From Candidatus Latescibacterota bacterium (GTDB lineage: Bacteria; Latescibacterota; UBA2968): a stretch of 64,000 nucleotides of DNA. The notes beneath the pieces were generated by a model that was not told the DNA's origin, searched no databases, and saw only the letters and a program-made list of their open reading frames with translations. Shown piece after piece: positions 46,589 to 64,000 of this stretch. How positions within the stretch are numbered: the first letter of the stretch is position 1; each line of letters starts with the position of its first letter. The translations under genes were made by a program, and so were the position numbers. Location of the stretch: positions 4,032,001 through 4,096,000 of the forward strand of contig OZ242311.1 of assembly GCA_965207885.1 (NCBI GenBank), given 5' to 3'.

Positions 46589-47527
46589 ATGATAGATGAA
46601 CTGAGTAAAATTCGCCATGCGCGTTTTCGTATGGAGATGGTGGCGGTTGACCGCTTAAAATTGCCGTCCTATAAAGGATCGACCTTTCGAGGAGCTTTTG
46701 GGCATGCGTTCAAAAGGCTGGTGTGTGTCAAGCGGGATATGGACTGTTCGACGTGTCTGATCTGCGCCCAGTGCGTTTATTATTATATTTTTGAGACACC
46801 GTTTAGCGGTGGGGAAGATAGCCGAGGTTACGCTTTTGCGCCACATCCGTTTGTGATTGAACCGCCCGGTGAGACGCGCCAGATTTACGAGATGGGCGAT
46901 GATCTACCCGTCGGCCTTGTTCTGGTGGGGCGGGCACTGGATTCTCTGCCGTATTTTATTTATGCCTTTGAAGAAATGGGACATCGGGGCTTGGGTACAG
47001 GGCGCGGCAAAGTTGCGCTGAAGCGGGTTGTTGCGCTGAGTGCGGCGGGCGAACAATGCATTTATGAGGCGGATACGGGCATATTGGATCTGGATTACCC
47101 GGTTTCCACGGGGTTGTCCAGTGGAGAAGAGATCGGGCCACTATTGCATCTGCGGTTGCAGACCCCGCTCCGTCTCAAAACACGGGGGCGCTATGCTTCT
47201 CGACTCGATTTTTCCTTGCTGGTGCGTGCGCTACTGCGGCGCATTTCAGATTTGACGCGCTTTCATTGCGGTGCGGAACTGGAGCTAAATTACGATCAGT
47301 GGATTGCGCGGGCAGAAAAAGTGCAGACTGCGGCGGTGAATACGCGCTGGTACGATTGGGAGCGGTATTCATTGCGCCAGGACCAAAAGATGAAATTGGG
47401 CGGTCTGGTGGGCGATGTGGTTTTTACCGGGGATATAGAGCCGTTCATGCCGCTTTTGCGCCTGGGCGCAGACTTGCATGTGGGCAAGGGCACGGGCTTT
47501 GGCCTGGGGCGTTATGAGATTTTGTGA
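46589..47527 (+). CDS. cas6: CRISPR pre-crRNA processing endoribonuclease Cas6
   Basis: GSTFRGAFG, Cys cluster, PHPFVIEPP, C-terminal HVGKGTGFGLGRY G-rich loop. Confidence 0.93.
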   Translation: MIDELSKIRHARFRMEMVAVDRLKLPSYKGSTFRGAFGHAFKRLVCVKRDMDCSTCLICAQCVYYYIFETPFSGGEDSRGYAFAPHPFVIEPPGETRQIYEMGDDLPVGLVLVGRALDSLPYFIYAFEEMGHRGLGTGRGKVALKRVVALSAAGEQCIYEADTGILDLDYPVSTGLSSGEEIGPLLHLRLQTPLRLKTRGRYASRLDFSLLVRALLRRISDLTRFHCGAELELNYDQWIARAEKVQTAAVNTRWYDWERYSLRQDQKMKLGGLVGDVVFTGDIEPFMPLLRLGADLHVGKGTGFGLGRYEIL

Positions 47528-47534
47528 GGGATAG

Positions 47535-49436
47535 ATGGCGGACATACAGGACATGTTGCATCAGGCGCGACAGCATATCGAGGCAGAGGAATTTGATCGC
47601 GCCGAGAGTTTGTGCGCCGATGTACTGGTGACCGATCCGGTTAGCGTGCTGGCGCACCAGTTGATGGCGCGGGTGTGGCTGGGGCGGAACGAACCAGATA
47701 AGGTGCGCGACCGCATCGCGTATCGCGACCAGTTGCCCTGCGATGAACACTATGTCGAATGGGGTCTGATCGCCGAGGAGGTGGAGGCGTTGGAAACCGC
47801 GGTTCAGATCTATGAAGACCTGCTAAAACGGGCACCGGAAAATGGCGTGGTGCTCTACCGATTGGGCCTGATCTGTCTGGAACGCGGCGAGCGGGACAGG
47901 GCCGTGGGCCTGTTGCAGCGCGTCCTGCGGGTGAGTCCAGATCACGCTGCGGCTGCTTTTGAACTGGCGCAATGCTATGTCGAAGACGAGTTGTGGGGGC
48001 TGGCCGCAGATGCCTATGAGCGGGGCCTGGCGAGCGATCCGGATAATGAGGAGGCGCAGACCGCACTTCAGGTGGTGATGGCGCGGATGCGAGAGTTGGC
48101 GCAATTGCCCAGCAGCGAGGTGCCGTCTGGAGAGGGGGCCGCGCGGCGGATGCGGATCTTATTTGCCGGACGGGAAGGGATGCATGCGCGGCAGTGGATA
48201 GATGAGGATGGTCGGGTCGGGTACAGTCCGGTGCAGGAGCCGCTTGCCGATCATCTGCTCTCTCTGCATCTGCAAGGCTCGGCGACTTTGGGCGTGTACC
48301 CGGTGCGGGCAGATCAAACAGTGCTTTTTGGCGTTATTGATATCGATATCCGCAAAAGTGCCCTGAAAGCGGGCGAGGCAGGGCAGTCCGTATCTGATCG
48401 GCTTCAAGAGTTGGTGCTGGCCGACGCCCGGCGACTATCACGGCGGTTCGATGAATTACACCTGCCGGTCTATGTGGAAGACAGTGGATACAAGGGGGTG
48501 CATCTGTGGCTTTTTTTTGCGGAGCCGGTGCCCGCGGCAGTGGTGAAGCGTTTTTTAGAGGCGGTTGTCCAGCGGGTCGGTCCGCCTGGGCCAGAGCTTC
48601 AGTGGGAAGTTTTTCCCAAGCAAGAGCAAGTCGCTGAAGATCAACTGGGCAATTTGATCAAGTTGCCGCTGGGGATTCATCTGAAGACCGGGCGAAGGTG
48701 TTTGTTCACGGATTTGGAAGGGCAAGAATACAGCGACCAGGAAGGTTTCCTCCAGCGCATCCAGCAGGTCGAGCGACAGGCTTTTGAACAGGCGGTGTCC
48801 CGATTGGTGGCGCCACCTGAACAAGGTGGTGTTGCCGGGTCAGTGGAAACACTACGAGAAGCTTTTCCCGAGTACGAAGCCCTTTTCAAGGGGTGTCCGG
48901 TGCTGGTCGCTCTGATGGAAAAAGCCGTGATTACGCATCATCTCACGCACGATGAACGCCTGGTGCTCAAGTGCGTTTTGGGACATTTGGACGATGGTGG
49001 GCACCGGCTGATCCACGGTATTATAGGGCATTGTCTCGATTACTCCGAGAAGATTACGCAGCAGCAGATTGAGCGCACGCCGCCCTATCCCATCAGTTGT
49101 CCCAAGATTCGCCAGCGTCTCCCCGAGGTTACTTCGACGGTCAACTGCGCGTGTGTGTTCGATTTGCCCGAAGGGGGGTATCCTTCTCCGCTGTTGCATC
49201 TCGATGCAACTTTTACCAGAGGTCGGTCACAAAGTGCAGACCGCCACGGGCCTCTGGTGGATAAATACGTGACTTTGCAGCGGGATTACCAGCGGTTGAA
49301 ACGCGAGTTGGCGCAACTCGAAGACGATTTGTACTATGCCATTACCTCGGCAGATCAGGATGAATTGCGGGCCGGTGGATGGATTTTGCGCCGGGATGGA
49401 GACGGGCGTTTCCAGGTGGAGGTTGACCTGGGGTGA
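47535..49436 (+). CDS. CRISPR-associated primase-polymerase (TPR + AEP + Cys-rich C-terminal domain)
   Basis: N-terminal TPRs; AEP motifs VIDID, SGYKGVHLW, GNLIKLPLG; C-terminal GCP..HCLDY..PISC..CAC; GTGA overlap with cas1. Confidence 0.88.
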   Translation: MADIQDMLHQARQHIEAEEFDRAESLCADVLVTDPVSVLAHQLMARVWLGRNEPDKVRDRIAYRDQLPCDEHYVEWGLIAEEVEALETAVQIYEDLLKRAPENGVVLYRLGLICLERGERDRAVGLLQRVLRVSPDHAAAAFELAQCYVEDELWGLAADAYERGLASDPDNEEAQTALQVVMARMRELAQLPSSEVPSGEGAARRMRILFAGREGMHARQWIDEDGRVGYSPVQEPLADHLLSLHLQGSATLGVYPVRADQTVLFGVIDIDIRKSALKAGEAGQSVSDRLQELVLADARRLSRRFDELHLPVYVEDSGYKGVHLWLFFAEPVPAAVVKRFLEAVVQRVGPPGPELQWEVFPKQEQVAEDQLGNLIKLPLGIHLKTGRRCLFTDLEGQEYSDQEGFLQRIQQVERQAFEQAVSRLVAPPEQGGVAGSVETLREAFPEYEALFKGCPVLVALMEKAVITHHLTHDERLVLKCVLGHLDDGGHRLIHGIIGHCLDYSEKITQQQIERTPPYPISCPKIRQRLPEVTSTVNCACVFDLPEGGYPSPLLHLDATFTRGRSQSADRHGPLVDKYVTLQRDYQRLKRELAQLEDDLYYAITSADQDELRAGGWILRRDGDGRFQVEVDLG

Positions 49437-50431
49437 TTCTCTATGTGACAGATCAGGGTACGGGGGTTTATCGCCGCGGAGAGCGGTTGCAAGTTCGGCG
49501 GCACAAGCAAGTGCTGACCGAGGTGCATTTGCACGATCTGGAACAGGTGGTGCTTATGGGGCAAATCGCGCTTTCTTCTCAGGCGATGAGCACGTTGCTC
49601 GAAAAAGGGGTGGATACGGTTTTTCTGAGTACCAATGGACGGTATCGGGGGCGGCTGGTTGGCCCAGCGCGGCGCAATGTGGTGTTGCGACAAAAGCAGT
49701 TTAAGTGCTATGAGGATGAGCAGTTTCGTCTGCGTGTGGCGCGGGGTGTGGTGGAGGGTAAACTCCGCAATATGCGGACGCTGCTCATGCGTCTGGCGCG
49801 GCGGCGCAAGGTGGATGTGGGCACGGTGGCGCATAGATTGCGCCGGTCAATTCAGCAGGTGGGACAGGCGACCAGTGCCGAGTCTCTGCGCGGGATTGAG
49901 GGGGCGGGCACCGCGGCTTATTTTGGTGTGCTTGGGGCTTTTTTCCCCGAAGGATTCGCGTTTCAGGGGCGCAACCGCCGTCCGCCGAGAGACCCGGCCA
50001 ACGCGCTGCTCAGTTTTGGGTATGCCCTGCTGGGCAATAGCATAGAAGGCGCGATTTATCTGGTTGGTCTCGATCCGTATCTGGGTTTTCTGCATGTGGT
50101 TGATTATGGGCGTCCTTCTCTATCACTGGACTTGATGGAGGAGTTTCGGCCCGTGCTGGTGGATGCGCTGGTGCTGGATTTGATCAACCACAATCGGGTG
50201 CAGAGCGCGGATTTTGAAGCGCGGGATGGGGGCGTATTTTTGCAGGGCGAGGGCCGCAAGCGGTTGATTGAGGGGTACCAGCGACGTCTTGAAGACCGGG
50301 TAACTTATCCCGTGGGGGGCGAGCGGGTGGAGCGGATTTCTTACCGGCGTTGCCTCGAATATCAGGTGCGTCGATTGGCGCGGGTGATTATGGGCGAGGA
50401 GGCTCAGTACAGGGCTTTTCTGGTGCGTTGA
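49433..50431 (+). CDS. cas1: CRISPR-associated integrase Cas1
   Basis: LRGIEG..A..YF, RNRRPPRDPANALLSFGY, GFLH, DLMEEFRP. Confidence 0.97.
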   Translation: MILYVTDQGTGVYRRGERLQVRRHKQVLTEVHLHDLEQVVLMGQIALSSQAMSTLLEKGVDTVFLSTNGRYRGRLVGPARRNVVLRQKQFKCYEDEQFRLRVARGVVEGKLRNMRTLLMRLARRRKVDVGTVAHRLRRSIQQVGQATSAESLRGIEGAGTAAYFGVLGAFFPEGFAFQGRNRRPPRDPANALLSFGYALLGNSIEGAIYLVGLDPYLGFLHVVDYGRPSLSLDLMEEFRPVLVDALVLDLINHNRVQSADFEARDGGVFLQGEGRKRLIEGYQRRLEDRVTYPVGGERVERISYRRCLEYQVRRLARVIMGEEAQYRAFLVR

Positions 50432-50474
50432 GATGTTTGTAACGATCCGCAGGCATGTCCCTGCGGGTGTAAGC

Positions 50475-50522
50475 AGGGATGGACACAGAGAAAAAATGAG
50501 GGATGGACACAGAGAAAAAATG
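50475..50522 (+). repeat. Perfect 24-bp tandem duplication at the cas2 start
   Basis: AGGGATGGACACAGAGAAAAAATG occurs twice in tandem. Confidence 0.9.
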
Positions 50523-50795
50523 TTTGTGACGATTTGTTTTGATATCAGTTCTGACCGCACGCGCCGGCAGGCGACCCGGGTGCTGGAGGCTTATGCAACG
50601 CGGGTGCAAAAGAGTGTGTTCGAATGTCGCATTGCCGAACGGCAATTTGTCGAGTTGCGGCAGCGCATGAGTCAAATTGGTCTGGCTGAAGGCGATCTGG
50701 TGCGCTATTATACGCTGTGTCGCGCATGCGAGCGTAAGATCGAGTTTACCGGCGGTTCTCCCCCGCAGGATGAAAAAGATCATCTGATTGTTTGA
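50520..50795 (+). CDS. cas2: CRISPR-associated protein Cas2 (alternative in-frame start at 50433)
   Basis: ICFDISSDR, RVQKSVFEC, D.VRYYTLC..C. Confidence 0.95.
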   Translation: MFVTICFDISSDRTRRQATRVLEAYATRVQKSVFECRIAERQFVELRQRMSQIGLAEGDLVRYYTLCRACERKIEFTGGSPPQDEKDHLIV

Positions 50796-51054
50796 TAGCT
50801 GGTCTTTGCGACCCGGATTAGAAAGGGTTTGTCAATATGGCGCATTGAATTTCTACTGCTTTTAATCGGTGGGAATTAGCTACGTCACTTAACCCTATTC
50901 TGGGTCGCGAATTTGTAATTTCTTGTCCTACAATAGATTAACAGAAAGGGACTTCTATGATTGAAGAAAAATGGATGGATAAACGCCTGTCAATATGGCC
51001 TGAGTCGCAAAAGCACCTCAAACAGACTGTGACTCAACAAGTTAGAAAGGAGGG
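50796..51054 (+). promoter_or_regulatory. CRISPR leader
   Basis: AT-rich non-coding region between cas2 and repeat 1; inverted motifs TTTGCGACCC / GGGTCGCGAA / GAGTCGCAAA and direct repeat TGTCAATATGGC (50830, 50988). Confidence 0.75.
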
Positions 51055-51248
51055 ATTGGAAGGAATTGACCCGCTCATAGAGGATTGAAACTTAATATAC
51101 CTGTTGGCAGGTTATCGGAGTGGTCATTTGACGAATTGGAAGGAATTGACCCGCTCATAGAGGATTGAAACTTAATATACGTTTCATGGATCTTCCGGTC
51201 GCCGGCGTAGATTGGAAGGAATTGACCCGCTCATAGGGGATTGAAAAC
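51055..51248 (+). CRISPR. Mini CRISPR array: 3 repeats (37 nt), 2 spacers (43 and 39 nt)
   Basis: ATTGGAAGGAATTGACCCGCTCATAGAGGATTGAAAC at 51055 and 51135, degenerate trailer copy at 51211; ends in the ATTGAAAC handle. Confidence 0.92.
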
Positions 51249-51269
51249 TTCGTCATCAAGGGATATGTC

Positions 51270-52991
51270 GTGCAGATCGCGGAACCCGTATTGAAAGCCA
51301 TCCAGGACAGAGGCAGACGAGGATTGCCCCTTGAGAATATTTATCGACACCTCTACAACCCGGACCTCTTTTTACGCGCTTATGGACGGCTGTATCGAAA
51401 AGCTGGCGCGACCACACAGGGCATTACAAAAGAGACCACAGATGGCATGTCTATGGCGAAGATCAATGCCCTCATCGAGGCATTCCGCTGCGAGCGGTAT
51501 CAATGGACGCCTGTTAAGCGCATCTATATTCCCAAAAAAAATGGGGGGCGGCGTCCGCTCGGCATACCGGTTTGGTCTGATAAACTGGTGCAAGAAGTTA
51601 TGCGATCTTTGTTGGGCGTCTATTATGAACCCCAATTTAGTGACCTGTCCCACGGCTTTCGGCCTCAACGGGGCTGCCATTCTGCACTTGCGGAAATTTT
51701 GAGATGGAAAGACATAGACTATTTTATCGAAGGCGATATCAAAGCCTGTTTTGACAGTATTGATCACGAATGTCTGCTGTCTATTTTGAAGGAGAAAGTC
51801 CGCGATGATCGGTTTATCGACTTAATTGGGGATTTGCTCAAGGCCGGATGCGTCGCGTACGGGCGTTACGAATCTACTCCGAGTGGTACGCCACAAGGCG
51901 GTCCCATTAGTCCACTTCTCGCAAACGTTTATCTCGACAGGTTGGATGAGTTCGTCGAAAATACGCTTGTGCCTCTTTACACAACGGGCGAGAAACGCAT
52001 AGAGGCGAGTTGGAAGACGCCAGAGGAGTTGCAGAGGGTTCTGAAGATATTGGATACGCAGGGTCCCGATTTTAGACGTATTCGCTATATCCGATACGCC
52101 GATGATTTTTTGATCGGTTTTACCGGGCGAAAGGCAGAGGCTAAAGAGATCAAACAATGTCTCAAAGAATTTTTGCAAGAGACGCTGAAATTGGAACTGT
52201 CAGAGGACAAAACCTCAATTACCCACAGCCGCAAAGAGACAGCACACTTTCTCGGATACGAGATCAAGAATCTGAATGGGTCAACGCAAAATACACTGAG
52301 CCTGAGTGTGCCGAAAAAAGCCGTGAAAGAGAAGTGTAGCTTGTATCAAAAACGCGGGCGTGTCACATACTGTGCCGAACTGCTGCATGACAGCGATTGG
52401 GAAATCATAAGTCTTTTTCAGAGTCGATATATCGGATATGTGCAATACTATATTTTCGCACACAATGTCCATATCTTAAACGTATTGCGCTGGGTGATGA
52501 GTGCGTCTTTGCTCAAGACGCTTGCGAAAAAGCATAAGACACATGTGAATCAACTTATGAAGCAGTATAAAGCGACTATCCAGACGCCTTATGGCCCGCT
52601 GACGTGTTTGGAGATGCCTGTTTTGTGTGAAGGTGGGCAATTGAGGACGGCGCGTTTTGGTGGCTTCTCTCTCAGGCCGAGGGAAGGCATACCCCTTGCA
52701 GACCGCGACCCAAACAGGGAGATGCGGTGCAAGGGGATAGAACTGATCCAGCGCTTGCTGTCAAACCAGTGCGAATGCTGCGGCGCAACAGGCCAGGTGG
52801 AAGTGCATCATGTCCGAAAACTTGTCCATAGAGAAGGGCAAGTATCAGAGCACACATGGATGCGAGACATGGTTACACGAAAGCGAAAAACCCTTATCGT
52901 GTGCAAAACATGCCACCAGGCAATCCATTCTGTGACAAAAACAAGGAAGAAAAACAGGTATCGGGGAATGCACGCAACACAACGCCAGTAA
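51270..52991 (+). CDS. Group II intron-type reverse transcriptase/maturase with HNH domain; no flanking intron RNA recognised
   Basis: YIPKKNG..RPLGIP..DKLVQ, SHGFRP.R, EGDIK.CFD.IDH, GTPQGG.ISPLLAN, RYADDF, maturase domain, C..C..EVHH..C..CH..IH. Confidence 0.92.
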   Translation: MQIAEPVLKAIQDRGRRGLPLENIYRHLYNPDLFLRAYGRLYRKAGATTQGITKETTDGMSMAKINALIEAFRCERYQWTPVKRIYIPKKNGGRRPLGIPVWSDKLVQEVMRSLLGVYYEPQFSDLSHGFRPQRGCHSALAEILRWKDIDYFIEGDIKACFDSIDHECLLSILKEKVRDDRFIDLIGDLLKAGCVAYGRYESTPSGTPQGGPISPLLANVYLDRLDEFVENTLVPLYTTGEKRIEASWKTPEELQRVLKILDTQGPDFRRIRYIRYADDFLIGFTGRKAEAKEIKQCLKEFLQETLKLELSEDKTSITHSRKETAHFLGYEIKNLNGSTQNTLSLSVPKKAVKEKCSLYQKRGRVTYCAELLHDSDWEIISLFQSRYIGYVQYYIFAHNVHILNVLRWVMSASLLKTLAKKHKTHVNQLMKQYKATIQTPYGPLTCLEMPVLCEGGQLRTARFGGFSLRPREGIPLADRDPNREMRCKGIELIQRLLSNQCECCGATGQVEVHHVRKLVHREGQVSEHTWMRDMVTRKRKTLIVCKTCHQAIHSVTKTRKKNRYRGMHATQRQ

Positions 52992-52996
52992 TCCAT

Positions 52997-53020
52997 GTAG
53001 GGGCGAGGCATGCCTCGCCC
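52997..53020. repeat. REP-like palindrome
   Basis: GTAG followed by the perfect 20-bp palindrome GGGCGAGGCATGCCTCGCCC. Confidence 0.7.
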
Positions 53021-53081
53021 GTGCCCTTCATTGCGGTGTGGTATTGCGTTGCACCACCCAGGCTGAACATAAGGAGAATTC

Positions 53082-53228
53082 ATGGTCAAACAGATATTAT
53101 TATGTACCGTCGGAGGCTCTCATCAACCGATTCTCGAAGCAATTAAATCATCGTCACCGTGCCATGTCTGTTTTTTTGCACGGACCGCCTCCTTCACATC
53201 CCATAACCAGCGAAGGAACAATCCATGA
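53082..53228 (+). pseudogene. N-terminal stub of a second TIGR02710-type CARF gene
   Basis: AAGGAG RBS; MVKQILLCTVGGSHQPILEAIKSSSPCHVCFF matches the next gene's MSETILLCTVGGSHQPILAAIETNSPKLVCFF; frameshift in a T7 run. Confidence 0.8.
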
Positions 53229-54487
53229 GCGAAACCATCCTTCTTTGCACCGTTGGCGGCAGCCACCAGCCTATCTTGGCGGCCATTGAAACAAACAGTC
53301 CGAAACTCGTTTGCTTCTTCTGTACCGAAGGACAGGCTGGTTCCGAGGTTCAAGTAATCGGCGAGGGCAAAGTTATCAAGGACAAACTGCAAGACAGCAA
53401 AGCAACATTGCCCAATATCCCCACCCAAGCGCGAGCGCAGGGTTGGAATGGTACCTATAAGATAAAGATCGTCCCTCCAGACGATTTGGATGGGGCCTTC
53501 TTTGTTATCCGAAATACGATCCTAAAATTGGCCCATAAGTATCCCAATGCCGAATTGGTGGCTGACTACACCGGTGGCACAAAGACGATGACGGCGGCCT
53601 TGGTCAGTGCTGTGTTGGATACTGAGCGCGTCGAGCTCCAACTCGTTGCTGGCGAACGCAGAGATCTCATACAAGTGATTCCGGATACCGAATTGTCGGT
53701 CGTCGCCAGCGTGACCCGATTGCTGATTGATCGTGACATCAAGCAATTTCTGGCCGCTTGGCGTCATTTCGGCTACCACGAAGCAGCAGAAGGGCTGAAG
53801 AAAGTGCGTATCGCGGCTGATTCGCCCGACTTTGAGCGTTTGCACCAAGCATATATGTTGAGTCAGGGCTTAGCATTGTGGGATAGATTCGATCACGCTG
53901 GCGCACTTGAAAAGATTCAACCGCTGGAGCAAATTAAAGCTGCCTATCCGTATATGATGCCGACGCTGGGACAGCTTAAGGCAGACCGAGAACAAGCTCT
54001 CTTATTCGACCTCTGGTTAAATGCCGAGCGGCGTGCGGCCCAGGGTCGCTTTGACGATGCGATTGCGCGGTGGTATCGCATGATGGAGTGGACAGCCCAA
54101 TGGCAACTCCGAACGAAACTCAACGCCGATACCGGGGACTTTTCAGGCGATTTGCTGCCGAAGCAGGTTCAGGCGGCCCCGGATTCAGATGGTAAAATTA
54201 AAATTGGGCTTTGGAAGGCATGGCAAGTCGTAAAATACCGTTGCGAACTATCGGGTCCTGCTCAGGACTTCATCAAAAAGCACGGATCAAAGCTCCTCGA
54301 TTTACTCGAGATTCGCAACAATTCGATACTGGCTCACGGTTTTTGTCCTGTGAGTTCTTCGAACTGGCAAGAGGTGCATAATTGGACACAAGATAAATTC
54401 CTGCCCGTTCTGCGTACCCTGGCCGAAGAAGTGGGCTTGAAAAGCGAGCCGAAACAACTCCCGACCGAATTTCCAGAGAGCATCTGA
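53225..54487 (+). CDS. TIGR02710-family CARF-HEPN type III effector
   Basis: LCTVGGS, DYTGGTKTM (CARF), WDRFDH..A, RNNSILAHG (HEPN). Confidence 0.9.
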   Translation: MSETILLCTVGGSHQPILAAIETNSPKLVCFFCTEGQAGSEVQVIGEGKVIKDKLQDSKATLPNIPTQARAQGWNGTYKIKIVPPDDLDGAFFVIRNTILKLAHKYPNAELVADYTGGTKTMTAALVSAVLDTERVELQLVAGERRDLIQVIPDTELSVVASVTRLLIDRDIKQFLAAWRHFGYHEAAEGLKKVRIAADSPDFERLHQAYMLSQGLALWDRFDHAGALEKIQPLEQIKAAYPYMMPTLGQLKADREQALLFDLWLNAERRAAQGRFDDAIARWYRMMEWTAQWQLRTKLNADTGDFSGDLLPKQVQAAPDSDGKIKIGLWKAWQVVKYRCELSGPAQDFIKKHGSKLLDLLEIRNNSILAHGFCPVSSSNWQEVHNWTQDKFLPVLRTLAEEVGLKSEPKQLPTEFPESI

Positions 54488-54641
54488 ATTGTGTCCGACA
54501 ATCACAGCCTTGCTGATACGTTTGTACGAGGCGGATTGTCACTGATGAGACACAGAATGGTGTGAATGGTAGAGATATATTGTCAGGGCACAAGTAGCCG
54601 TGCTGGCAGATTTATTTTGACAAAAATGAGAGGGTAATCAG

Positions 54642-56246
54642 ATGGCAACAGGCAAAATCATGAATTGGAAAGGAAAATACGGATTTATTGAAAATGATGC
54701 TGGAGGGCAAAATGTTTTCTTACACATCAATGAAGTTGATCAAGACGATAGAGGATTCTTGACTAAGGGCACAAGAGTTGATTTCGATATACAAGAAGTG
54801 CCTCAAGGATTGGCAGCAAATAATGTTCGTTTCTTGAAATTTCACAATCCATATACCTTTGTCCCTACCCCTCCGCGTCAGGATGCAATAAAAGCGGGTG
54901 GGTTTGCTGGCGATTTTGATCCCTTGGAGTGTGGTCTCAGCCATGCATGTCTTGATCCGGATCTATGGACAGGACATCTGCCAATCAAGCTGACCACGGT
55001 CACACCCCTGGTATTGCCGAAAACTGATGGTGAAGAACGTTTGTCAACTGAGCACCAAACTTATGATGTCCTCAACTATTTGCCGGAATCGTCCCTGCGC
55101 GGCATGTTGCGAAGTGCCTACGAAGTGGTGACGAACTCGCGCTATAGTTGTTTTAGCAACGATGACCGATTGAAGTTTCGTTTAGGTCGAGAAAAGAGAA
55201 CATATGAAAAGAGTCCCAAAGACCTTCTCGACTTCTCACTAAGATCAGCGGATAAGATGAGTAAGCTGTCTCCCGCGGATCGTTTGTTCGGGTGGGTACC
55301 TCAGCAATCCGGTAGCGACCAGGGGTACAAGGGCCGCATACGGGTCGTTTGTGAAGATGATGCACGATCTGAGATTATCCAACACTTTGATGGTAAAGAC
55401 TTGCCATTGACGATCCTCGGAGAGCCAAAACCCGCACAAGGCCGTTTTTATGTTGCTAAAGATAAAAAAGGTACGCCGCAAGAAGATGGCATTAGCAAGG
55501 AGCAAGCTGGCTACAGTGGAGGTAAGGGCTTACGAGGTCGGAAGCAATACTGGCACCATAAAGGGCTGGAAGCGGGTCAGGCACGAGACTATTGGAAATC
55601 GTCAGTAGATGACCGAACGCAGCAACAAAACAATGGTCGGTATCAAGAATATCGCCGTCCCAATAAAAATGGAGAGCCACAAAAAGATGCTCAAAACCGC
55701 AGCATTACCGGATGGATTAAGCCAGGTACGGTTTTTAAGGCATCCCTATATGTACAAAATCTGCAAACTGAAGAAATTGGTGCATTGCTTTGGCTGCTAT
55801 CGCTTCCCTCAGACCATTACTTCCGGCTGGGATATGGCAAGCCATTGGGTTTTGGCAGCGTGAGGATAGAGGTTGATGAGGAGCGATGTGTAAATGGATG
55901 TCTGCCACTCGGCACTGGCAAAGATTGGAAAAGCTACTATGCAACCTTTTATACTTCCCCACCGGCAACACTAAATGAGGACCAACGAAAGGGCTGTATT
56001 CAAAAATTTAAGGCCAGTATGGTAGCTGCGTACGATTCAAAACATTTTAATAATCTACCTTTTATCAGCGGATTTCTGAAAGTTCTAAAGGGTCCAAAAA
56101 AAGATGCACCCATTCACTATCCACGGCTGGAATACAAACCCAATCCCAAAGGCGAGAATTTTCGATGGTTCGTCGCAAATGAAAAAGGTAAAAGACTTGC
56201 GCTTCCAGCGGTTACAGCGAAGAAGGGGCTACCTTATCAACCCTGA
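54642..56246 (+). CDS. cas7: TIGR03986-type Cas7 (RAMP) with N-terminal cold-shock domain
   Basis: CSD KYGFI..VFLH..GLAANNV; FHNPYTFVP, SSLRGMLRSAYE.VTNS, LSPADRLFGWV, LRGRKQYWH, LGYGKPLGFGSV. Confidence 0.87.
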   Translation: MATGKIMNWKGKYGFIENDAGGQNVFLHINEVDQDDRGFLTKGTRVDFDIQEVPQGLAANNVRFLKFHNPYTFVPTPPRQDAIKAGGFAGDFDPLECGLSHACLDPDLWTGHLPIKLTTVTPLVLPKTDGEERLSTEHQTYDVLNYLPESSLRGMLRSAYEVVTNSRYSCFSNDDRLKFRLGREKRTYEKSPKDLLDFSLRSADKMSKLSPADRLFGWVPQQSGSDQGYKGRIRVVCEDDARSEIIQHFDGKDLPLTILGEPKPAQGRFYVAKDKKGTPQEDGISKEQAGYSGGKGLRGRKQYWHHKGLEAGQARDYWKSSVDDRTQQQNNGRYQEYRRPNKNGEPQKDAQNRSITGWIKPGTVFKASLYVQNLQTEEIGALLWLLSLPSDHYFRLGYGKPLGFGSVRIEVDEERCVNGCLPLGTGKDWKSYYATFYTSPPATLNEDQRKGCIQKFKASMVAAYDSKHFNNLPFISGFLKVLKGPKKDAPIHYPRLEYKPNPKGENFRWFVANEKGKRLALPAVTAKKGLPYQP

Positions 56247-56290
56247 AGCAATGCCGTTCGCAATTCCCAGACAAAGAGGAGACAATAAAT

Positions 56291-57382
56291 ATGGGAACAC
56301 AACTTATTTTTACTGTTGGAACCAATCCACTACCGATATGGGTGGCGTGGCATCATTTGAAAGACAAACTATCAGAGCCTGTTCAGGTTCGACTTGTGCA
56401 TACAGCGGACACAGAAGATGAAAAAGATCGGCTAAAAAAGTATTGTCACGGTGCGGCCTTTCTTGATCCGATTCAAACGTCCGACGGCGACCCTCGTACT
56501 GTACGTGAGGATATCAGGACTATCGCTGATGGCCTCTCAGACGAGACCAACCTTCTGCACATTCACTACACTGGCGGTACCAAGGTGATGGCCGTTGAAA
56601 CTGTCGCCGCCCTTGAAGCCACTTTACCGAAAAATATCCACTTGGATACCTCCTATCTGGACCCACGCGCCACATCAGGTCCCGCTATCGTGAATCGGGC
56701 TGGGAAAACTTGGGTCCGAGATACTCGTAAGAATATTACTGCTGATCTTGCTCGTATCGCTCTCCTCAACGGTTTTACTCTCGGGCCGTTTAAACACAAA
56801 TATTGGGATAAAGAGGCCAACTGCTATGAAACGGACGACTGTCCGGCTCCTGGAATACCCACTCAAAATCAATTGGACAAGGGCAGAAAGGCTATTACAG
56901 GCGGTGGGCGTATCACATGTTACAAACTCTTAGAACACGGTGCCTATGCCGCATTTAAGGATGCATTGGAGGAGGTTTCTACGAGCAATTCAAATCGTAA
57001 TAACTATAAACTTTTCCACAATGTGTATGTCCGACGTATAAGAGCATCACAGAGTGCAAAGCCCTTCGAGCTTGATGTAGTAGCAGTACTGGGGTATCAG
57101 ATTGTCGTTGTTTCATGTACTCTTGATGGGAGTCATGACAAGATAAAACAAAAAGGTATGGAGGCCATTTTGCGAGCAAGGCAACTCGGTGGTGATGAAG
57201 CGCGGGCCATTGTTTTGTGTAGTGCTCACCAGAATGATGCTAAACTCATTGAAGATGAGTTAAGGGATGAAATGGGTAGTGCGAGCGAGCCTTTACAAGT
57301 TTGGGAAAGGAATAGGTGGCCTATGCCTATGTTGTCAGATGCGTTTTATCAATATCTGCGTAATGACCTGCATTGGAAGTGA
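56291..57382 (+). CDS. Can2/Card1-like CARF + PD-(D/E)xK-type nuclease (DUF1887-like)
   Basis: VGTNPLP, HYTGGTKVM, FELDVV...VSCT, RARQLGGDEAR. Confidence 0.85.
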   Translation: MGTQLIFTVGTNPLPIWVAWHHLKDKLSEPVQVRLVHTADTEDEKDRLKKYCHGAAFLDPIQTSDGDPRTVREDIRTIADGLSDETNLLHIHYTGGTKVMAVETVAALEATLPKNIHLDTSYLDPRATSGPAIVNRAGKTWVRDTRKNITADLARIALLNGFTLGPFKHKYWDKEANCYETDDCPAPGIPTQNQLDKGRKAITGGGRITCYKLLEHGAYAAFKDALEEVSTSNSNRNNYKLFHNVYVRRIRASQSAKPFELDVVAVLGYQIVVVSCTLDGSHDKIKQKGMEAILRARQLGGDEARAIVLCSAHQNDAKLIEDELRDEMGSASEPLQVWERNRWPMPMLSDAFYQYLRNDLHWK

Positions 57383-57396
57383 GTGGGGATATACTT

Positions 57397-59031
57397 ATGT
57401 CAAATTCTCTTTATATGGGTCAATGTGTTGCAGTCTTCGGTACTGCGAGTCTTCAGCGATACATCTTTCAGAGCAATCGACTGAAAGAGAATATCGGTGC
57501 GTCCTATCTCGTAAAATACTGGCTTGACGAGGGCTTGGTTGAGGCCATAAAGCAGTCTGGCTGTACGGTTGATACGACTGTGTGGGATGAGTACAAAACA
57601 AATCCCTCAATGTCTCGGCCTGCAAAGCCAGTGGACATATCGAAAGATGTCAATTTCATCTATGTCGGTGGGGGTAATGCTGCGTTGCTGTGCAAAAGCC
57701 AGGAGACTGCTAAAGATGTTGTCAAAATATGGAGCCACAAGCTACTCGAACATGCACCTGGACTCCGGGTGGCCGTTGGGTATGCGGATGTTGAGAACTC
57801 ATTGGCTGAGGCATATCGTTCCGCGTTAGAAAACCTGTCACAATGCGAGGAAGCATTGCCGTTTGGGGACACCTTGTACAGCTTACCCGTTGTTCGCACT
57901 TGCACGACTACTGGGCTTCCTGCGAGCGTACCCAGCAAAGAAGAGAACAATGAGGAGGAGTGGATATCGCAGTCTGCGTCGAGCAAGCGAAATCAAGTCG
58001 GCTCTGAACGCAAGTCAGGTGCTGCCCAAAGGGATATTAGACGCGAATTCAAATCGGTTCTGCAAAGAGGTCAAAACTTTGCCATTGAACTCGACAAACT
58101 GGGTGGGCGTAAAGGAGAATCGCATATTGCTGTCGTGCATGCTGACGGCAATGGAATGGGCAAGCATCTTATAGATGTGGTGAACAGTGCAGAAGATGAT
58201 GAGGAATTTCTCCATCACATCCGAGCATTTTCGGCCTCTGTGTCGCGTCTGTCCCAGAGTGCCCTACAGGAGACATTGCAATATCTACAGGAAGAGTTGC
58301 CGAACCTGAAAGGGGATTTGTCGCTGGGAGAAGAAAAAATTTTTCCTTTGCGTCCTATCGTGTACGGAGGCGATGATTTGACATTTGTATGCGATGGTCG
58401 CGTGGGTCTCGATCTGGCGGCCTTCTATTTGAAGGCGTTTTCCAAAGGCAAGATCAAAGTCCGTGGTAAGGATGAACCCGTTGATGCCTGTGCGGGGGTA
58501 GCCATTGTGCCTACAAAATTTCCCTTTGCCCGCGCGTATCATTTTGCTGAAGAACTCTGCGGATTGACCAAGTCATACCTTCGTGAGAGAGATTTAACTG
58601 GCAGTTGGCTGGATTTTCAGATTATCCAGGAAGGTATCACCCGATCCATTTCGGCACTGAGAGCCGCACAGTATCGTAGCTTTGAGGGACAAACACTGCA
58701 TCAGCGTCCTTATCAGGTACCGGAAAAATGGGACGTTTTTGTTGAAATTTTGAAGGAATTTCAAGCGTCGTGGCCCCGCAACCGTGCCAAAGGGCTTTTG
58801 CAGGCTCTAACGCAGGGACCTGCGGCAACGCAACGCTTCGTTGAGGGCGCACGGTGGCGTGATGTGAAGTTACCATCGTCTTCGGTAAGTGGTACAGGTT
58901 GGACGGGTGGAGATCCTCCTGATCGCACCACGCCGTATTTCGATCCGCTCGAAACACTTGATTTCTATCTGGAAGTGAAGAAACCAGCAAAAAATGGCGA
59001 GAAAGCAGGTAAGGAGATCAAGAATGACTGA
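57397..59031 (+). CDS. cas10: Type III-D Cas10 (palm domains, GGDD intact, no HD domain)
   Basis: QRYIFQSNRLKENIGAS, YVGGGNA, HADGNGMG, YGGDDL. Confidence 0.92.
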   Translation: MSNSLYMGQCVAVFGTASLQRYIFQSNRLKENIGASYLVKYWLDEGLVEAIKQSGCTVDTTVWDEYKTNPSMSRPAKPVDISKDVNFIYVGGGNAALLCKSQETAKDVVKIWSHKLLEHAPGLRVAVGYADVENSLAEAYRSALENLSQCEEALPFGDTLYSLPVVRTCTTTGLPASVPSKEENNEEEWISQSASSKRNQVGSERKSGAAQRDIRREFKSVLQRGQNFAIELDKLGGRKGESHIAVVHADGNGMGKHLIDVVNSAEDDEEFLHHIRAFSASVSRLSQSALQETLQYLQEELPNLKGDLSLGEEKIFPLRPIVYGGDDLTFVCDGRVGLDLAAFYLKAFSKGKIKVRGKDEPVDACAGVAIVPTKFPFARAYHFAEELCGLTKSYLRERDLTGSWLDFQIIQEGITRSISALRAAQYRSFEGQTLHQRPYQVPEKWDVFVEILKEFQASWPRNRAKGLLQALTQGPAATQRFVEGARWRDVKLPSSSVSGTGWTGGDPPDRTTPYFDPLETLDFYLEVKKPAKNGEKAGKEIKND

Positions 59032-61396
59032 GTATTTTTTGCAAATCACGCTGCAATCGCCGCTGACCTCTGCCGCAGGTGAGGGACGTGTGGGCGTGGT
59101 TGACCGTGACATAGCTTTTGATGACCTCGGGCTACCTATTCTCCCCGGCAGGCGACTCAAAGGGCTGTGGCGCGAAGCCTATCGCGATGTCGCCGATGCG
59201 TGGGCTTTATACGGTGAATCTTCAATACCGGTAGAGCATATTTTCGGCGAGTCAGGACAGGGAGATGCTTGCATGTTTGTTGCCAATGCTGAATTGCAAG
59301 AGGCGTCTTCTTTAAGAGAATGGTTGAGATATTTACAACATGATAAAAAATTTCACCTTGACGATGTTGTGGAGCACTTTGCCTCTGTGCGTGCCCAGAC
59401 CGCGATTGACCGCAGGACTGGCGCAGCACTTGATAATACGCTCCGTCTCACCCGTACCTTGAAAGCAGATCTGGTATTTCGAGCGCGTGTGCGCTTCTTT
59501 GAGGCTCCAGATGATGAGTTGCTCAGTGCCCTATCTCTGGGATCCGCGGCTTTGCAACACATGGGAACAGCGCGGACCCGCGGTCTCGGCAAGGTCCGTT
59601 GTCGTTTGCTTGTACGCGATGCGAGTGGGCAATGCCGGGACTTGACAGACGAAGTCCTGAGCAAAAATGCGCTTCCTTCAATTACCCAAACGGCCTCCAA
59701 TCAACCAGCCCAAACCTCAAAGGCTCATGTGACTTCCTCATCTCGTTCAACTTGTACGGTCCCCACCCACATATTGCGCTATCGGATTGTGTTGACAGCA
59801 CCAGCAGTTATCCCAACAGTAGATGGCGACCCGAATACTGTTGTGACCCGGAGAGATATTCCCGGAAGCAATATCTGGGGGGCTGCTGCCTATCGTTACC
59901 TGAGCCAAGCGAATCATACGCCTGAAGATGGTGCGTTTCGCCACGCCTTTCTCGATGGGGGCTTGCGATTCTTGGCGGCTTACCCAGAAGCAGATGATCC
60001 CGAAGTGTACAATGGAATGCCTCAACGCCTGATTCCCATTCCCCACTCAATACGCAAATTTAAGGAAGGCGAAGAACTGATAGATTTTGTGGAATCATCA
60101 CCAGGGGAGGATCCAATAAAGCGTCTTGATCGTCGATACGCTATCATTAGTGGAGTCAGTTTGAAAACACAAGCTGTCAAGACGGAATTGAATTACCATC
60201 ACGCCCGCGCCAGAGATCGTCGCATAGGTCGTGCTCTTGGTGCAATGGTTCCAGATGGCGGTGCCTTCTTCACGTATGAGGCCATCGAGGCTGGACAGTC
60301 GTTTCAAGGGGCTATCCTGGGTTCCAAGGATGATCTAAAAGCTCTGCAATCCTATTTAAAAGGGGGGCAGATAAGAATAGGACGGTCGCGTAGCGCACAG
60401 TACGGTGAGGCGGAATTTGAATGGATTGATGGTGCCCCAAAGGAATTGAGCAGGTTTGTTGAGTGGGATGGATTCGTTGAACAGCAGCCCGCCAGTGTCC
60501 CAAATTCTGGTGCGTGTCTTATCATCACCACCTTATCGCCCTTGTTGACCGTCAACGATTATGGGCATCCGGAGGCGCGCTTTCCCGAGCGTGAGTTGGC
60601 TAACGCTCTGGGGCTGGAGACTTCGGATCTCAGACTATCGCGCAGTTATACCCGCACAGATTTGATTGGTGGATATAATTCCCACCTGCGCCTCCCGCGT
60701 CAGCAATGGCCCGCTATCGCCTCTGGTAGTGTTTTTGTGTTTAAGGCTGAAAAAACACTTGATCAGGAACGTCTCTTGCAATTAGAACACAATGGCCTGG
60801 GGTTACGGAAAGGAGAAGGGTATGGTCGCATTGCTGTCAATCGACAGGGTAGCCTCGGTTTGTCAGGCTGCGAAGAAACCCAACTCGACAATCTCGATAG
60901 GCTACCCGATTCGCCAAACTCAGCGATGCCACAGAGTGTCCATGATCTGATATATGGCGTCGTGAGATCGCGTTGCCTAACTGAGATGCAGCAGCGTGCT
61001 ATAACTATCGCCAGGTCGAACGATAATATCCCAAAAAATGCCCTTCTTGGACGGATGCGTTTGTTTCTTCAACAGAACTCACGCGACGAAAGTTTGAGAC
61101 AACTACGTGATCCTGCAAAGGACCAACTAACGAAATATCAGATTGACATGAGTGGTTTCGGTATAACGGATGATTGGTCGCCGCAAATGACGATGTATGA
61201 ATTGTTCAAGAAGGCCTGGACAGAACCGGAGTCTCTAACGCGACAAATGATTGAAAGTCATGTCCATGAGGATATTGTCGAAGATGCCGACATGCGCCAG
61301 ACTCTAATTAACAAACTGGTTGCAGACGATAGCGCGGAGATGTGTACAGTGTTTCTCGATCACCTGCTTACAGCACTGCGCCGTAAATCAAAATAG
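59024..61396 (+). CDS. Cas7-Cas5(Csx10)-Cas11 fusion
   Basis: N-terminal RAMP LPGRRLKGL..GTARTRGLG; Csx10 IPGS.IWG, IGRSRSAQYG, GLGLRKGEGYG; helical C-terminal domain (Cas11 call is inference). Confidence 0.85.
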   Translation: MTEYFLQITLQSPLTSAAGEGRVGVVDRDIAFDDLGLPILPGRRLKGLWREAYRDVADAWALYGESSIPVEHIFGESGQGDACMFVANAELQEASSLREWLRYLQHDKKFHLDDVVEHFASVRAQTAIDRRTGAALDNTLRLTRTLKADLVFRARVRFFEAPDDELLSALSLGSAALQHMGTARTRGLGKVRCRLLVRDASGQCRDLTDEVLSKNALPSITQTASNQPAQTSKAHVTSSSRSTCTVPTHILRYRIVLTAPAVIPTVDGDPNTVVTRRDIPGSNIWGAAAYRYLSQANHTPEDGAFRHAFLDGGLRFLAAYPEADDPEVYNGMPQRLIPIPHSIRKFKEGEELIDFVESSPGEDPIKRLDRRYAIISGVSLKTQAVKTELNYHHARARDRRIGRALGAMVPDGGAFFTYEAIEAGQSFQGAILGSKDDLKALQSYLKGGQIRIGRSRSAQYGEAEFEWIDGAPKELSRFVEWDGFVEQQPASVPNSGACLIITTLSPLLTVNDYGHPEARFPERELANALGLETSDLRLSRSYTRTDLIGGYNSHLRLPRQQWPAIASGSVFVFKAEKTLDQERLLQLEHNGLGLRKGEGYGRIAVNRQGSLGLSGCEETQLDNLDRLPDSPNSAMPQSVHDLIYGVVRSRCLTEMQQRAITIARSNDNIPKNALLGRMRLFLQQNSRDESLRQLRDPAKDQLTKYQIDMSGFGITDDWSPQMTMYELFKKAWTEPESLTRQMIESHVHEDIVEDADMRQTLINKLVADDSAEMCTVFLDHLLTALRRKSK

Positions 61397-61415
61397 CAAA
61401 ATAAGGACGAATAGC

Positions 61416-62870
61416 ATGGCGAATACTAAGACCTCCAAGATTAAAGACACCATTGTGCGTCGTTTATATGCGCGAGGGAAGTGGAAGCTGGACAGTGTGG
61501 CGCACTTTGGTGGAGATGAAACAGGTATAGCAGATATGTGTCTCCTGCGGGATGCGGAAGGAAAACCCTTTATTCCAGCCGCATCTATCGCTGGCGTAGC
61601 GCGGAGTTTTCTGGCCCGGGTGAGTAAGCCCTGGACGAAATACCAAAAGGGGGATGAGGGCAAAATACTCAAACAGCTTTTTGGCGGAGCGGGCGAAAAG
61701 GATACTATGAGTGCCTTAATTGTTGCCGATGCTGCTTGCAAAAATTCCCAAACGTCAATCCGCGATGGCGTGCGCGTGGATACTCAATCGGGTTCTGCCG
61801 CTGAGGGGACAAAGTTCGATGTGGAAGTTGTCGAGCGCGGGGCTGAGTTTGAGTTGCGTCTGGAGTGCGTTATCCGTGATGGAGACGATAGCCAAGGATT
61901 GGAGAAGTTATTTTTAGCCCTCTTACATGGATTCAAAGCAGGTGAGATCCGATTGGGCGCACGTACCCGTCGGGGCTATGGACGCGGCAAGGTAGCGTCC
62001 TGGAAAATACGCGATTTGAAGATGAACGATCCAGAGGATGTTATGGCCTGGCTACGCGATAAGGTCTGTTCTCGTCCCGCGAGTGATTTGACACCATGTC
62101 CTTTGCCATCTGATCAACGACAATACTTCCGCCTTGAAGCAGATTTTATTCTGCGGACGTCTCTGTTAATCCGCAGTTCACCTTCTGATCCAAAATCTCC
62201 AGACATGGTTCATCTGCACTCTGCTGGAGAGCCTGTTGTTCCCGGTACATCCTTTGCCGGTGCATTTCGACATCGCGCATCCCTGATCGCAAGTACCATT
62301 GGCTGGCCTGAGGATTCGGTGAGTGAAATATTCGGCCCTGTGCATGAACAAGATGTCAAAGACCCACAAAAAGATTTGTGGGCAAGTCGGGTATGGATTG
62401 AGGAAAAGCTGGTGAAGAATGTGGAATCGCGGTGGCAGGATCGCGTTGCTATTGATCGGTTTACCGGAGGTAGTTTGCAGAGTGCCTTGTTTAACGAAAA
62501 ACCCATTTTCCCACAGAAATCTACGCCACATCTCAAGTTAAAACTGACGTTAGAAGAACCGGATGATGCGGAAATCGGCTTGTTGTTCTTAACTTTGCGC
62601 GACTTCTGGAATGGACATGCCGCTCTGGGCGGAGAAACGAGCAATGGTCGCGGTACTCTCCAGGGTTTTAAAGCTGAGTTGCAATTGAAGCGGCGCAAAT
62701 CGTCAAAGGCTGAGTGGGAGTTTTCGCAGTATAATAGCGGTATGACTCTTGTTGGGTGTAGTGGTGATGCTTCATTCTTCGAATGTTGCGTACAAAAAGC
62801 CCAATCGCCTTCTAAACATCCCGATGGATCACGGCGGCCTAAAAAAGAAAAGGTGACCACCGATGACTAA
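61416..62870 (+). CDS. cas7: Double-RAMP Cas7-Cas7 fusion
   Basis: IPAASIAG..LGARTRRGYG and VPGTSFAGAFR..AIDRFTGG..LGGETSNGRG. Confidence 0.88.
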   Translation: MANTKTSKIKDTIVRRLYARGKWKLDSVAHFGGDETGIADMCLLRDAEGKPFIPAASIAGVARSFLARVSKPWTKYQKGDEGKILKQLFGGAGEKDTMSALIVADAACKNSQTSIRDGVRVDTQSGSAAEGTKFDVEVVERGAEFELRLECVIRDGDDSQGLEKLFLALLHGFKAGEIRLGARTRRGYGRGKVASWKIRDLKMNDPEDVMAWLRDKVCSRPASDLTPCPLPSDQRQYFRLEADFILRTSLLIRSSPSDPKSPDMVHLHSAGEPVVPGTSFAGAFRHRASLIASTIGWPEDSVSEIFGPVHEQDVKDPQKDLWASRVWIEEKLVKNVESRWQDRVAIDRFTGGSLQSALFNEKPIFPQKSTPHLKLKLTLEEPDDAEIGLLFLTLRDFWNGHAALGGETSNGRGTLQGFKAELQLKRRKSSKAEWEFSQYNSGMTLVGCSGDASFFECCVQKAQSPSKHPDGSRRPKKEKVTTDD

Positions 62871-63414
62871 AGAAACACACAAAAAACTCGATGAAAAATT
62901 GGTTTGTTCAAATCTGTCTAATGTAACAGAGAAGGACACGGCGTGGGTCTTATTGCAGGAGCCGGGGTTTATCGGCTTTGGCGTGGTGCAGTCGGACAAA
63001 ATCTGCTGGCCTCCAGATGTGCAACCGGATTGGACTCGGGTTAGCGATCTCCGCCTATTTGGTGAAAAAGGTGAATGGCATGTATGGTCTCACTGGAACG
63101 AAGGTTGGCAAAGCCGTTGGCTGAAAGCGGAGGACATAGACGATGCCCTGACAGAGTGTCACGCACTCTGGGGAACAGATTTTCAATCCGGTACACCCCC
63201 TTGGGTAAAGTTGATGGAAGATCGCGGAATAGAGATATGGCTACCATTAGTAAATTTGGAATGTCGTCATCTACCGCTACGCCTAAAACTTAAACAGGTG
63301 ATTGGCTATGATGATAAAAGCGGCCTTGCAGGTATTACCGATGCTGCTCTTGTGGCACTGGTTAGCAAAGATGGTAAAACAGTGTGGGATCCACCTGATT
63401 TTCCGCTGGACTGA
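62863..63414 (+). CDS. csx19: Csx19-like type III-D subunit
   Basis: LRLFGEKGEWHVW, LWGT, EDRG..I.LP; position after cas7x2 with an 8-nt overlap. Confidence 0.8.
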   Translation: MTKETHKKLDEKLVCSNLSNVTEKDTAWVLLQEPGFIGFGVVQSDKICWPPDVQPDWTRVSDLRLFGEKGEWHVWSHWNEGWQSRWLKAEDIDDALTECHALWGTDFQSGTPPWVKLMEDRGIEIWLPLVNLECRHLPLRLKLKQVIGYDDKSGLAGITDAALVALVSKDGKTVWDPPDFPLD

Positions 63415-63980: not shown

Positions 63981-64000
63981 AAACGTCGGAAAATACTGAG

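Follow-up and report, generated by a model that had tools for sequence, protein, structure and literature searches.

The window analysed here (64,000 nucleotides of a Candidatus Latescibacterota bacterium, contig OZ242311.1, positions 4,032,001 to 4,096,000 of the forward strand) carries a type III-D CRISPR locus in which a group II intron-type reverse transcriptase (RT) lies at the trailer end of a mini-array, downstream of cas6, a CRISPR-associated primase-polymerase (CAPP), cas1 and cas2 (Table 1). Judged from sequence comparisons, this RT evidently keeps its RT, maturase/thumb, DNA-binding and HNH nuclease parts, has lost the intron RNA and is fixed in one Latescibacterota lineage. We are confident that it is under selection, free of a ribozyme and linked to CRISPR. 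As to what it does, the explanation to which we lean, at slightly better than even, is that of a domesticated, single-copy group II intron RT at the array trailer that makes DNA on RNA templates for use in spacer capture.

The protein has the complete architecture of a group II intron-encoded protein. Pfam assigns it RVT_1 (2.8e-32), Intron_maturas2 (5.9e-11) and an AI2M-like HNH domain (4.1e-12), and its score against TIGR04416 is 277 bits, just below the cut-off of 300. The YADD motif at residue 276, an HH motif at 513 and two CxxC motifs at 501 and 545 are kept in all six CRISPR-RT loci described below, and D278 and D279 are invariant in 49 aligned sequences. Among solved structures in the PDB, the best relative is LtrA (313 bits), with Cas6-RT-Cas1 (52 bits) and CaCART-CAPP's RT domain (40 bits) scoring far lower. 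Compared with the intron protein, the clade of CRISPR RTs has a deletion of 17–35 residues ahead of the YADD block, and one of its subclades has a second deletion of 11 residues.

What has disappeared is the RNA. The window RT begins 22 nt past the last repeat, too close for intron domains I–III to fit in between. Rfam, run in E-value mode (E ≤ 1) on positions 44000–64000 of the window, returned no match, and at the gathering thresholds applied to the relatives RF00029 was not found at any of the six CRISPR-RT loci, whereas it stands right after the open reading frame (ORF) in all six tested neighbours of 49–56% identity (L002, L003, L009, L010, L014 and L035). The same genome also has two near-identical 2.4-kb introns elsewhere (99.75% over 2426 nt); their protein is 53% identical to the window RT and each is immediately followed by domains V–VI (RF00029, 68 bits), so the method is able to see such a ribozyme. 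The non-coding flanks of these introns pick up the control introns L009 and L014 with both blastn and nhmmer; against the six CRISPR-RT loci, nhmmer gave no match and blastn a single 14-nt match at chance level (L037, E 0.12). A hidden ribozyme at the RT was rejected on these grounds, the three methods being negative there apart from that chance-level match, while control introns were found. We also rejected a DIVa-like hairpin at the RT start, for which single-sequence folds are loosely intron-like but the six-locus consensus reaches only -2.7 kcal/mol with 9 pairs. No flanking repeats were found around the RT. An earlier reading of this DNA, made from sequence only, had called the RT stand-alone, HNH-retaining and of group II intron type; the blank Rfam interval and the Pfam domains bear out this description and make the RT ribozyme-less as well.

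The RT occupies the same slot wherever its context can be read. The nearest public relatives of the window are metagenome-assembled genomes (MAGs) labelled Candidatus Latescibacterota. A scan of one genome per species yielded RTs of 87–88% identity at loci L007 and L008, a fragment (L029) and 20 other matches at 46–52%. In a separate survey of 168 genomes of the phylum (RT at E ≤ 1e-100), seven genomes, including the window's own, had a match, four of them in a second genus at 56–69% identity. At 56%, the match in G118 (L035) carries RF00029 and is a true intron, whereas G140, G133 and G122 have CAPP-cas1-cas2-array-RT, lack RF00029 and hold arrays of 32, 55 and at least 28 repeats. This order lies on one strand in the window, L007, L008, L037 and L038 (3, 31, 18, 32 and 55 repeats, respectively), and in G122 it is split over two contigs, with CAPP-cas1-cas2-array on L066 and array-RT on L039. 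An upstream cas6 was seen only in the window, L007 and L008. At all six loci the RT is past the trailer end, on the array's strand and 22 to ~770 nt from the last repeat, and in all six readable contexts it is kept with cas1, cas2 and an array without intron RNA, as in a stand-alone CRISPR-associated RT (CART). There is one member of the clade per genome, the two other copies in the window's genome being the different, 53% identical intron. Clade members are mostly on long contigs and intron proteins mostly on contigs of 2–5 kb, which fits a single-copy gene. JGI metagenomes provided 120 relatives, of which 80 loci were kept, and no clade members; intron RNA models match four of the eight JGI loci of highest local identity, and array-like repeats are absent from all eight.

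Phylogeny and substitution patterns point the same way. A search of 5.8 billion proteins gave 7079 matches at E ≤ 1e-50 among 8000 scored candidates. The best 120 of these comprise eight full-length clusters at 81–90% identity, 11 at 60–68% and two partial ones, after which there is a gap, the remainder being at most 54% identical (up to 57% in a separate alignment). In a maximum-likelihood tree of 74 rows (L015, with an incomplete ORF, was left out), the six CRISPR-context RTs and 19 further proteins (P0001–P0019) form one clade with an SH-aLRT support of 100, a stem of 0.48 and four deep subclades; all ten ribozyme-followed proteins, at most 56% identical, fall outside it. Pairwise ratios of non-synonymous to synonymous substitution rates (dN/dS) are 0.11–0.19 for the RT, 0.09–0.16 for CAPP and 0.08–0.15 for cas1, with synonymous divergence (dS) up to >1. 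Split by domain, the RT values are 0.09–0.15 for the RT domain, 0.08–0.21 for the maturase domain X and 0.11–0.23 for the DNA-binding domain D plus HNH, so the nuclease part is maintained too. The idea of a chance intron remnant was rejected on conserved place, selection and clade structure. The RT is thus tied to the CRISPR locus, as the sequence-only reading had assumed, by its post-array slot in six of six readable loci, its single clade and purifying selection. Among the findings that this reading had named as speaking against it are closest homologues that all lie in intact introns elsewhere and sister CAPP loci that lack the RT. The former was not found; the latter holds for four of ten sister loci and not for the other six.

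A further question is to which module the RT belongs. Between the window and L007/L008, identity is 87–88% for the RT, 92–93% for CAPP and 93–95% for cas1 but only 26–28% for Cas10, from which it follows that the effector side was replaced and that the array and adaptation genes kept their RT. The gene following the RT is likewise of another CARF family in L007/L008 than in the window. The best PDB matches of CAPP are 7nqd (8.9e-33) and 7nqf/7p9j (1.1e-32), and its DIDI (269), HLW (323) and PLG (378) blocks align to 7nqd, a chain which we take to be the MpCAPP Prim-Pol domain; the window CAPP therefore looks active, as far as its sequence goes. With an N-terminal TPR region, an AEP core with DxD and His blocks, a C-terminal domain and a position adjoining cas1-cas2, it has the features of a class A, TPR-type CAPP, in line with its match to NF040561, the NCBIfam model for 'CRISPR-associated primase-polymerase type A1'.

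How could such an RT serve adaptation? In the scheme that we propose, in outline the one that the sequence-only reading had put forward, the RT would copy foreign or abundant RNA into complementary DNA (cDNA), the DNA-template-preferring CAPP would prime or fill the second strand or repeat gaps, and Cas1-Cas2 would insert the product at the leader end of the array. The HNH domain might cut one DNA strand to expose a 3' OH from which synthesis is primed, in the manner of target-primed reverse transcription; alternatively, it might trim prespacers. The RT would broaden the input of the module and be inessential to it, since sister modules work without one. A proposal of RNA capture is reasonable because TPR-CAPPs prefer DNA templates; they also bind Cas1 and Cas2 (PMC8211822; this source and, here and below, PMC8632793, PMC10415136, PMC5513706, PMC12337344 and 10.1101/2023.09.01.555893 are cited from partial texts). 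RT-Cas1 systems acquire spacers from RNA (PMC8632793; 10.1101/2023.09.01.555893). It is plausible that the RT and CAPP together turn RNA into DNA spacers, and whether the job of the RT is spacer acquisition with CAPP and Cas1-Cas2 is, in our estimate, about an even call. A fuller version, which we advance tentatively and consider rather unlikely in all its parts, is a two-polymerase, nuclease-assisted capture of RNA spacers, with an HNH nick, target-primed cDNA synthesis at or near the array, second-strand synthesis by CAPP, integration by Cas1-Cas2 and a supply of RT that follows transcription of the array. If true, it would represent an independent re-invention of RNA spacer capture, at an 'unfused' stage.

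The spacing around the RT gene bears on its expression and on other modes of action. Promoter and terminator predictions between array and RT occur in numbers at the level of shuffled sequence, with no + strand site in the gap, which makes them uninformative. The window RT would hardly have a promoter of its own and so is probably read through from the array; given that it starts so close behind the last repeat, its message is probably the 3' tail of the CRISPR RNA precursor (pre-crRNA), released by Cas6. Upstream of the gene in the window there are 22 nt and downstream of it in L007 21 nt, too little at those places to hold a dedicated template RNA, which disfavours a mode like that of retrons or defence-associated RTs (DRTs).

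Several observations weigh against a role in spacer capture. The RT is absent from four of the ten CAPP loci with at least 78% identity to the window CAPP (G081, G087, G091 and G135), and these have arrays of 60, 28, 62 and ~245 repeats, so the RT is not required for adaptation. Its presence on the CAPP+Cas1 tree takes at least two changes; the RT is an optional, old add-on that was lost or shuffled more than once. In the second-genus loci, dS of the RT is 2–4 times that of CAPP and cas1, which suggests that RT and adaptation genes may differ in history. The array separates the RT from cas1-cas2, and a CARF gene always follows the RT (CARF-HEPN in the window, L037 and L039, CARF-HEPN-CARF in L007 and CARF-PD-DExK-like in L038), so that the RT could belong with the ancillary side. 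The origin of self-derived spacers shows no RT-specific signal, RT-plus and RT-minus arrays being alike in this respect: such spacers number 1 of 2 in the window array and 1 of 54 in G133, and the RT-less array of the window's genome, with 29 spacers, has 1 full and 2 partial ones. Genomic context is known for six loci, and P0001–P0019 are known from their protein sequence alone. Finally, the CRISPR RTs that we know of are without an HNH domain, and we know of no established role for HNH in adaptation.

One rival explanation accepts domestication and selection of the RT but assigns it another job, such as an effector of cyclic-oligoadenylate/CARF defence, repair of DNA breaks (cf. the G2L4 RT) or an action on crRNA or the array, for example cDNA-based array maintenance. 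The invariable CARF neighbour, the long arrays without RT and the selected HNH nuclease, which fits an effector or repair enzyme, all agree with it, and a domesticated intron-like RT acting in double-strand break repair has been published (PMC12337344). However, the CARF family downstream varies and the array and adaptation genes upstream are constant, the effector set has been exchanged with the RT retained, and six of six readable contexts are array trailers by CAPP-cas1-cas2. We consider a job outside spacer capture somewhat unlikely, although it is the strongest of the competing explanations.

Two alternatives remain. The RT-HNH protein could still be selfish, maintaining itself at array trailers through an unrecognised form of mobility or homing and with a history of its own. 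This would account for the elevated RT dS relative to CAPP and cas1 in the same locus pairs and for the patchy presence on the CAPP+Cas1 tree, and a related full intron inside a spacer of the genome's other array shows that the family does enter arrays. It is hard to reconcile with a single copy per genome, an always identical strand and slot, the failure to find a ribozyme or flanking repeats, and the equal dS of RT, CAPP and cas1 between L007 and L008 (0.22–0.23), and we regard it as very unlikely. Less likely still, and in our judgement nearly negligible, is a neutral, decaying relic of an intron that landed beside the array. Decay does occur: L029 (9336–10204), in another Latescibacteria-labelled MAG, has two array-like repeats and, of an RT that is 90% identical, only residues 1–68; queries with the window's proteins turned up no cas genes there, and the locus represents the module in a decayed state. 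Intron-type RT pseudogenes near type III loci have also been reported (PMC5513706). Six intact ORFs with a dN/dS of 0.11–0.19 over dS >1, a full set of kept catalytic motifs, and a clade that has a long stem and includes 19 more full-length proteins stand opposed, and the dN/dS values, overall and by domain, come close to refuting a relic.

In the published model, an intron invades a CRISPR locus, its RNA is lost and the RT co-evolves with Cas1, with several such origins (PMC6013744); the Methanosarcina CRISPR-RT lineage is a recent intron-derived case (PMC5513706). The window RT fits this route of invading, losing the RNA and keeping the RT (PMC6013744; PMC5513706; PMC10415136). Like stand-alone CARTs (Toro clades 1, 9 and 13; e.g. 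Methanosarcina), it is an intron-derived RT without intron RNA, unfused to Cas1, in a type III locus. It differs from them in its probably separate origin, being far nearer to LtrA than to the two solved CRISPR RTs with which it was compared. It differs also in retaining maturase, D and HNH under selection, in standing past the array and not beside cas1, and in belonging to a clade found here only in Latescibacterota. Clade 12 includes RTs that adjoin an AEP domain or are fused to one within a CRISPR adaptation module (PMC8632793, citing Toro 2019a), and CART-CAPP fusions, in which the Prim-Pol part is inactive, have been described next to stand-alone CARTs (PMC10415136). These share with the window an RT and an AEP primase-polymerase in one type III module with Cas1-Cas2 (PMC10415136, PMC8632793), but the window proteins are not fused: CAPP and RT are encoded by different ORFs, between which lie cas1, cas2 and the array; the CAPP is of the TPR type with intact catalytic blocks, and the RT has the full length of an intron protein. 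The TPR-CAPP operon of Marinitoga piezophila also has TPR, AEP and C-terminal domains upstream of cas1-cas2 and an array; an RT gene is not described for it in the partial text (PMC8211822), whereas here six of ten sister loci add one after the array.

At the other end of the comparison are mobile LtrA-like (mitochondrial-like) group II introns, whose protein has the same architecture as the window RT at 46–56% identity. Such introns have domains V–VI (RF00029) and are repeated in genomes; the window RT has the protein architecture but no catalytic RNA was found, it is single-copy without sign of mobility, and it carries the deletion ahead of YADD. One LtrA-like intron in our set, L014 from Herpetosiphon, is next to type III genes, and we infer that it is the Herpetosiphon aurantiacus intron of PMC6013744, which reports a mitochondrial-like-class intron from Herpetosiphon in a CRISPR locus. 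In the literature on this architecture, taken apart from the supplementary tables on RT clades, we found no HNH- and maturase-retaining CRISPR RT under selection, no separate RT with an active-type TPR-CAPP, no trailer position and no case in Latescibacterota. The sequence-only reading's statement that the combination is not a described module thus stands in part: an HNH-retaining RT and a separate RT by a TPR-CAPP were not found in print, but RT+AEP modules and the passage from intron to CRISPR RT are published (PMC8632793, PMC10415136, PMC6013744). An earlier listing of this RT lineage in the RT-clade supplements is possible.

As far as is known, CRISPR-associated RTs alone provide cells with a natural means of writing RNA sequence into DNA, and RNA recorders make use of them. 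Those characterised have trimmed RT domains, are mostly fused to Cas1, and owe their presumed intron origin to trees. The lineage described here shows what has been inferred as an early stage: a whole intron protein including the nuclease, with the ribozyme gone, under selection and in a fixed slot beside an active-type primase-polymerase. The 'before' state is present in the same genome as a live intron of a related family inside a spacer of another array. Sister modules with and without the RT form matched pairs for comparison, and the lineage is a natural setting in which to test the contribution of an HNH nuclease and of a separate CAPP to RNA spacer capture. In addition, LtrA-like RTs are probably processive, and the protein provides a new RT of this kind for recording tools.

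Table 1 Features of the type III-D CRISPR locus, in window coordinates.
Feature	Position	Strand	Evidence
cas6, crRNA-processing endoribonuclease	46541..47527	+	Pfam CRISPR_Cas6 9.8e-20; PADLOC Cas6 3e-105; identity 88-90% in L007/L008
TPR-AEP CRISPR-associated primase-polymerase (CAPP, type A1), 633 aa	47535..49436	+	NF040561 365 bits, cut-off 200; Pfam AEP-TOTE 5.2e-42 and TPR families
cas1 integrase	49433..50431	+	Pfam Cas_Cas1 4.1e-101; identity 80-95% across 9 sister loci
cas2	50433..50795	+	Pfam CRISPR_Cas2 4.1e-18, residues 30-102
Leader, 258 nt	50796..51053	+	Terminal motif TTAGAAAGGAGG abutting repeat 1, common to sister loci
Mini CRISPR array, 3 repeats x 38 nt (51054-51091, 51134-51171, 51210-51247) and 2 spacers	51054..51247	+	Repeat search
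Stand-alone RT-maturase(X)-D-HNH, 573 aa, GTG start	51270..52991	+	Pfam RVT_1, Intron_maturas2, AI2M HNH
CARF-HEPN ancillary RNase (Csm6/Csx1-like)	53225..54487	+	TIGR02710 174 bits, cut-off 84; PADLOC CARF1--CARF_HEPN 1.1e-123
Cold-shock domain fused to type III-D Cas7 (RAMP)	54642..56246	+	Pfam CSD and RAMPs; TIGR03986 253 bits, cut-off 161
CARF-PD-DExK ancillary nuclease	56291..57382	+	PADLOC Csx1 3.1e-50, CARF4--CARF_PDDEXK 1.1e-42; no Pfam or NCBIfam match
Cas10d with GGDD cyclase motif at residue 332	57373..59031	+	PADLOC Cas10d 5.9e-124
Cas7-Cas5 (Csx10) fusion, type III-D	58994..61396	+	PADLOC Cas5_IIId 2.3e-104, Cas7_IIId 4.9e-41; Csx10 TIGR02674 match under cut-off
Cas7 (type III-D, Csx7-like)	61320..62870	+	PADLOC Cas7_IIId 6.4e-116; TIGR02581 115 bits, cut-off 108
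Csx19, type III-D signature protein	62863..63414	+	TIGR03984 67.5 bits, cut-off 35; PADLOC Csx19 1.9e-19

The ORF list of the window places all genes of 46541–63414 on the + strand, and ORFs, Pfam, NCBIfam and PADLOC together confirm that every element named in the sequence-only reading is present and co-oriented, with a span correct to a few dozen bases. The assignment to type III-D follows from Cas10d, Csx10 (Cas5), several Cas7 proteins and Csx19 (PADLOC, NCBIfam). The gene between the two CARF genes is a RAMP and not itself a CARF protein; its cold-shock domain sits at the N-terminus of a TIGR03986 Cas7, and related RAMP genes are found at the far end of L007 and L008. Upstream of cas6, at 43775–46240, there is an 821-aa protein with the planctomycete-type PSD/PSCyt set DUF1592/1588/1585/1587/1595, which is unrelated to the CRISPR locus.

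The mini-array is genuine but short. The 38-nt repeat has three matches at up to 3 mismatches, compared with none in 100 shuffles, and these are the only copies in the 6.23-Mb genome, which is a single contig. The third (last) repeat is degenerate, and TTAGAAAGGAGG, directly before repeat 1, is found again in L008, L062 and L063, where it stands ahead of the first repeat listed; both features put the leader on the cas2 side and the RT on the trailer side. Spacer 1 is identical over 33 of its 42 nt (51101–51133) to the sense strand of a gene of the same genome that encodes a 373-aa repetitive protein (G000:C1:5004469–5004501). In the genome's second, RT-less array (L065), the spacer at 2989–3028 agrees with a dnaA-like gene at 40 of 40 nt, again on the sense strand. 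Since both self-matching spacers are in sense orientation, their crRNAs would not pair with the mRNA. The two window spacers (51092–51133 and 51172–51209) have their first 9 nt, TTAATATAC, in common. This prefix lies outside the matching protospacer of spacer 1, and in none of the relatives' arrays do spacers share a prefix. The longest RT-less array, with ~245 repeats, is covered by L064 and L147 (G135:C1:123000–160000), and no window gene was found in the 12 kb that follow it.

The RT-less locus L065 (G000:C1:5760000–5779900) is the genome's second CAPP-cas1-cas2 locus, with a CAPP that is 43% identical and ~39 repeats in an array from 2634 to ~8000. One of its spacers is interrupted, in antisense to the repeats, by a whole group II intron of 2.4 kb (copy L003, ~4500–6930, carrying RF00029). 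The split spacer resembles the 5' exon of the other intron copy, L002, at 22 of 28 nt, which suggests that the intron reached this spacer by homing to a target site carried there. Among the JGI contigs, L140, L141 and L143 have interrupted intron proteins (55–60% local identity) together with intron RNA models, with RF02003 lying between two RT segments in L140; these look like introns nested within introns. Lastly, the 5' end of cas2 in the window is partly duplicated, with an 'MFVTI' start at both 50433 and 50520 and a perfect 24-nt tandem repeat between them (50475–50522). Cas2 proteins of relatives align from residue 29–30 only, and the second 'MFVTI', at 50520, is the probable true start.

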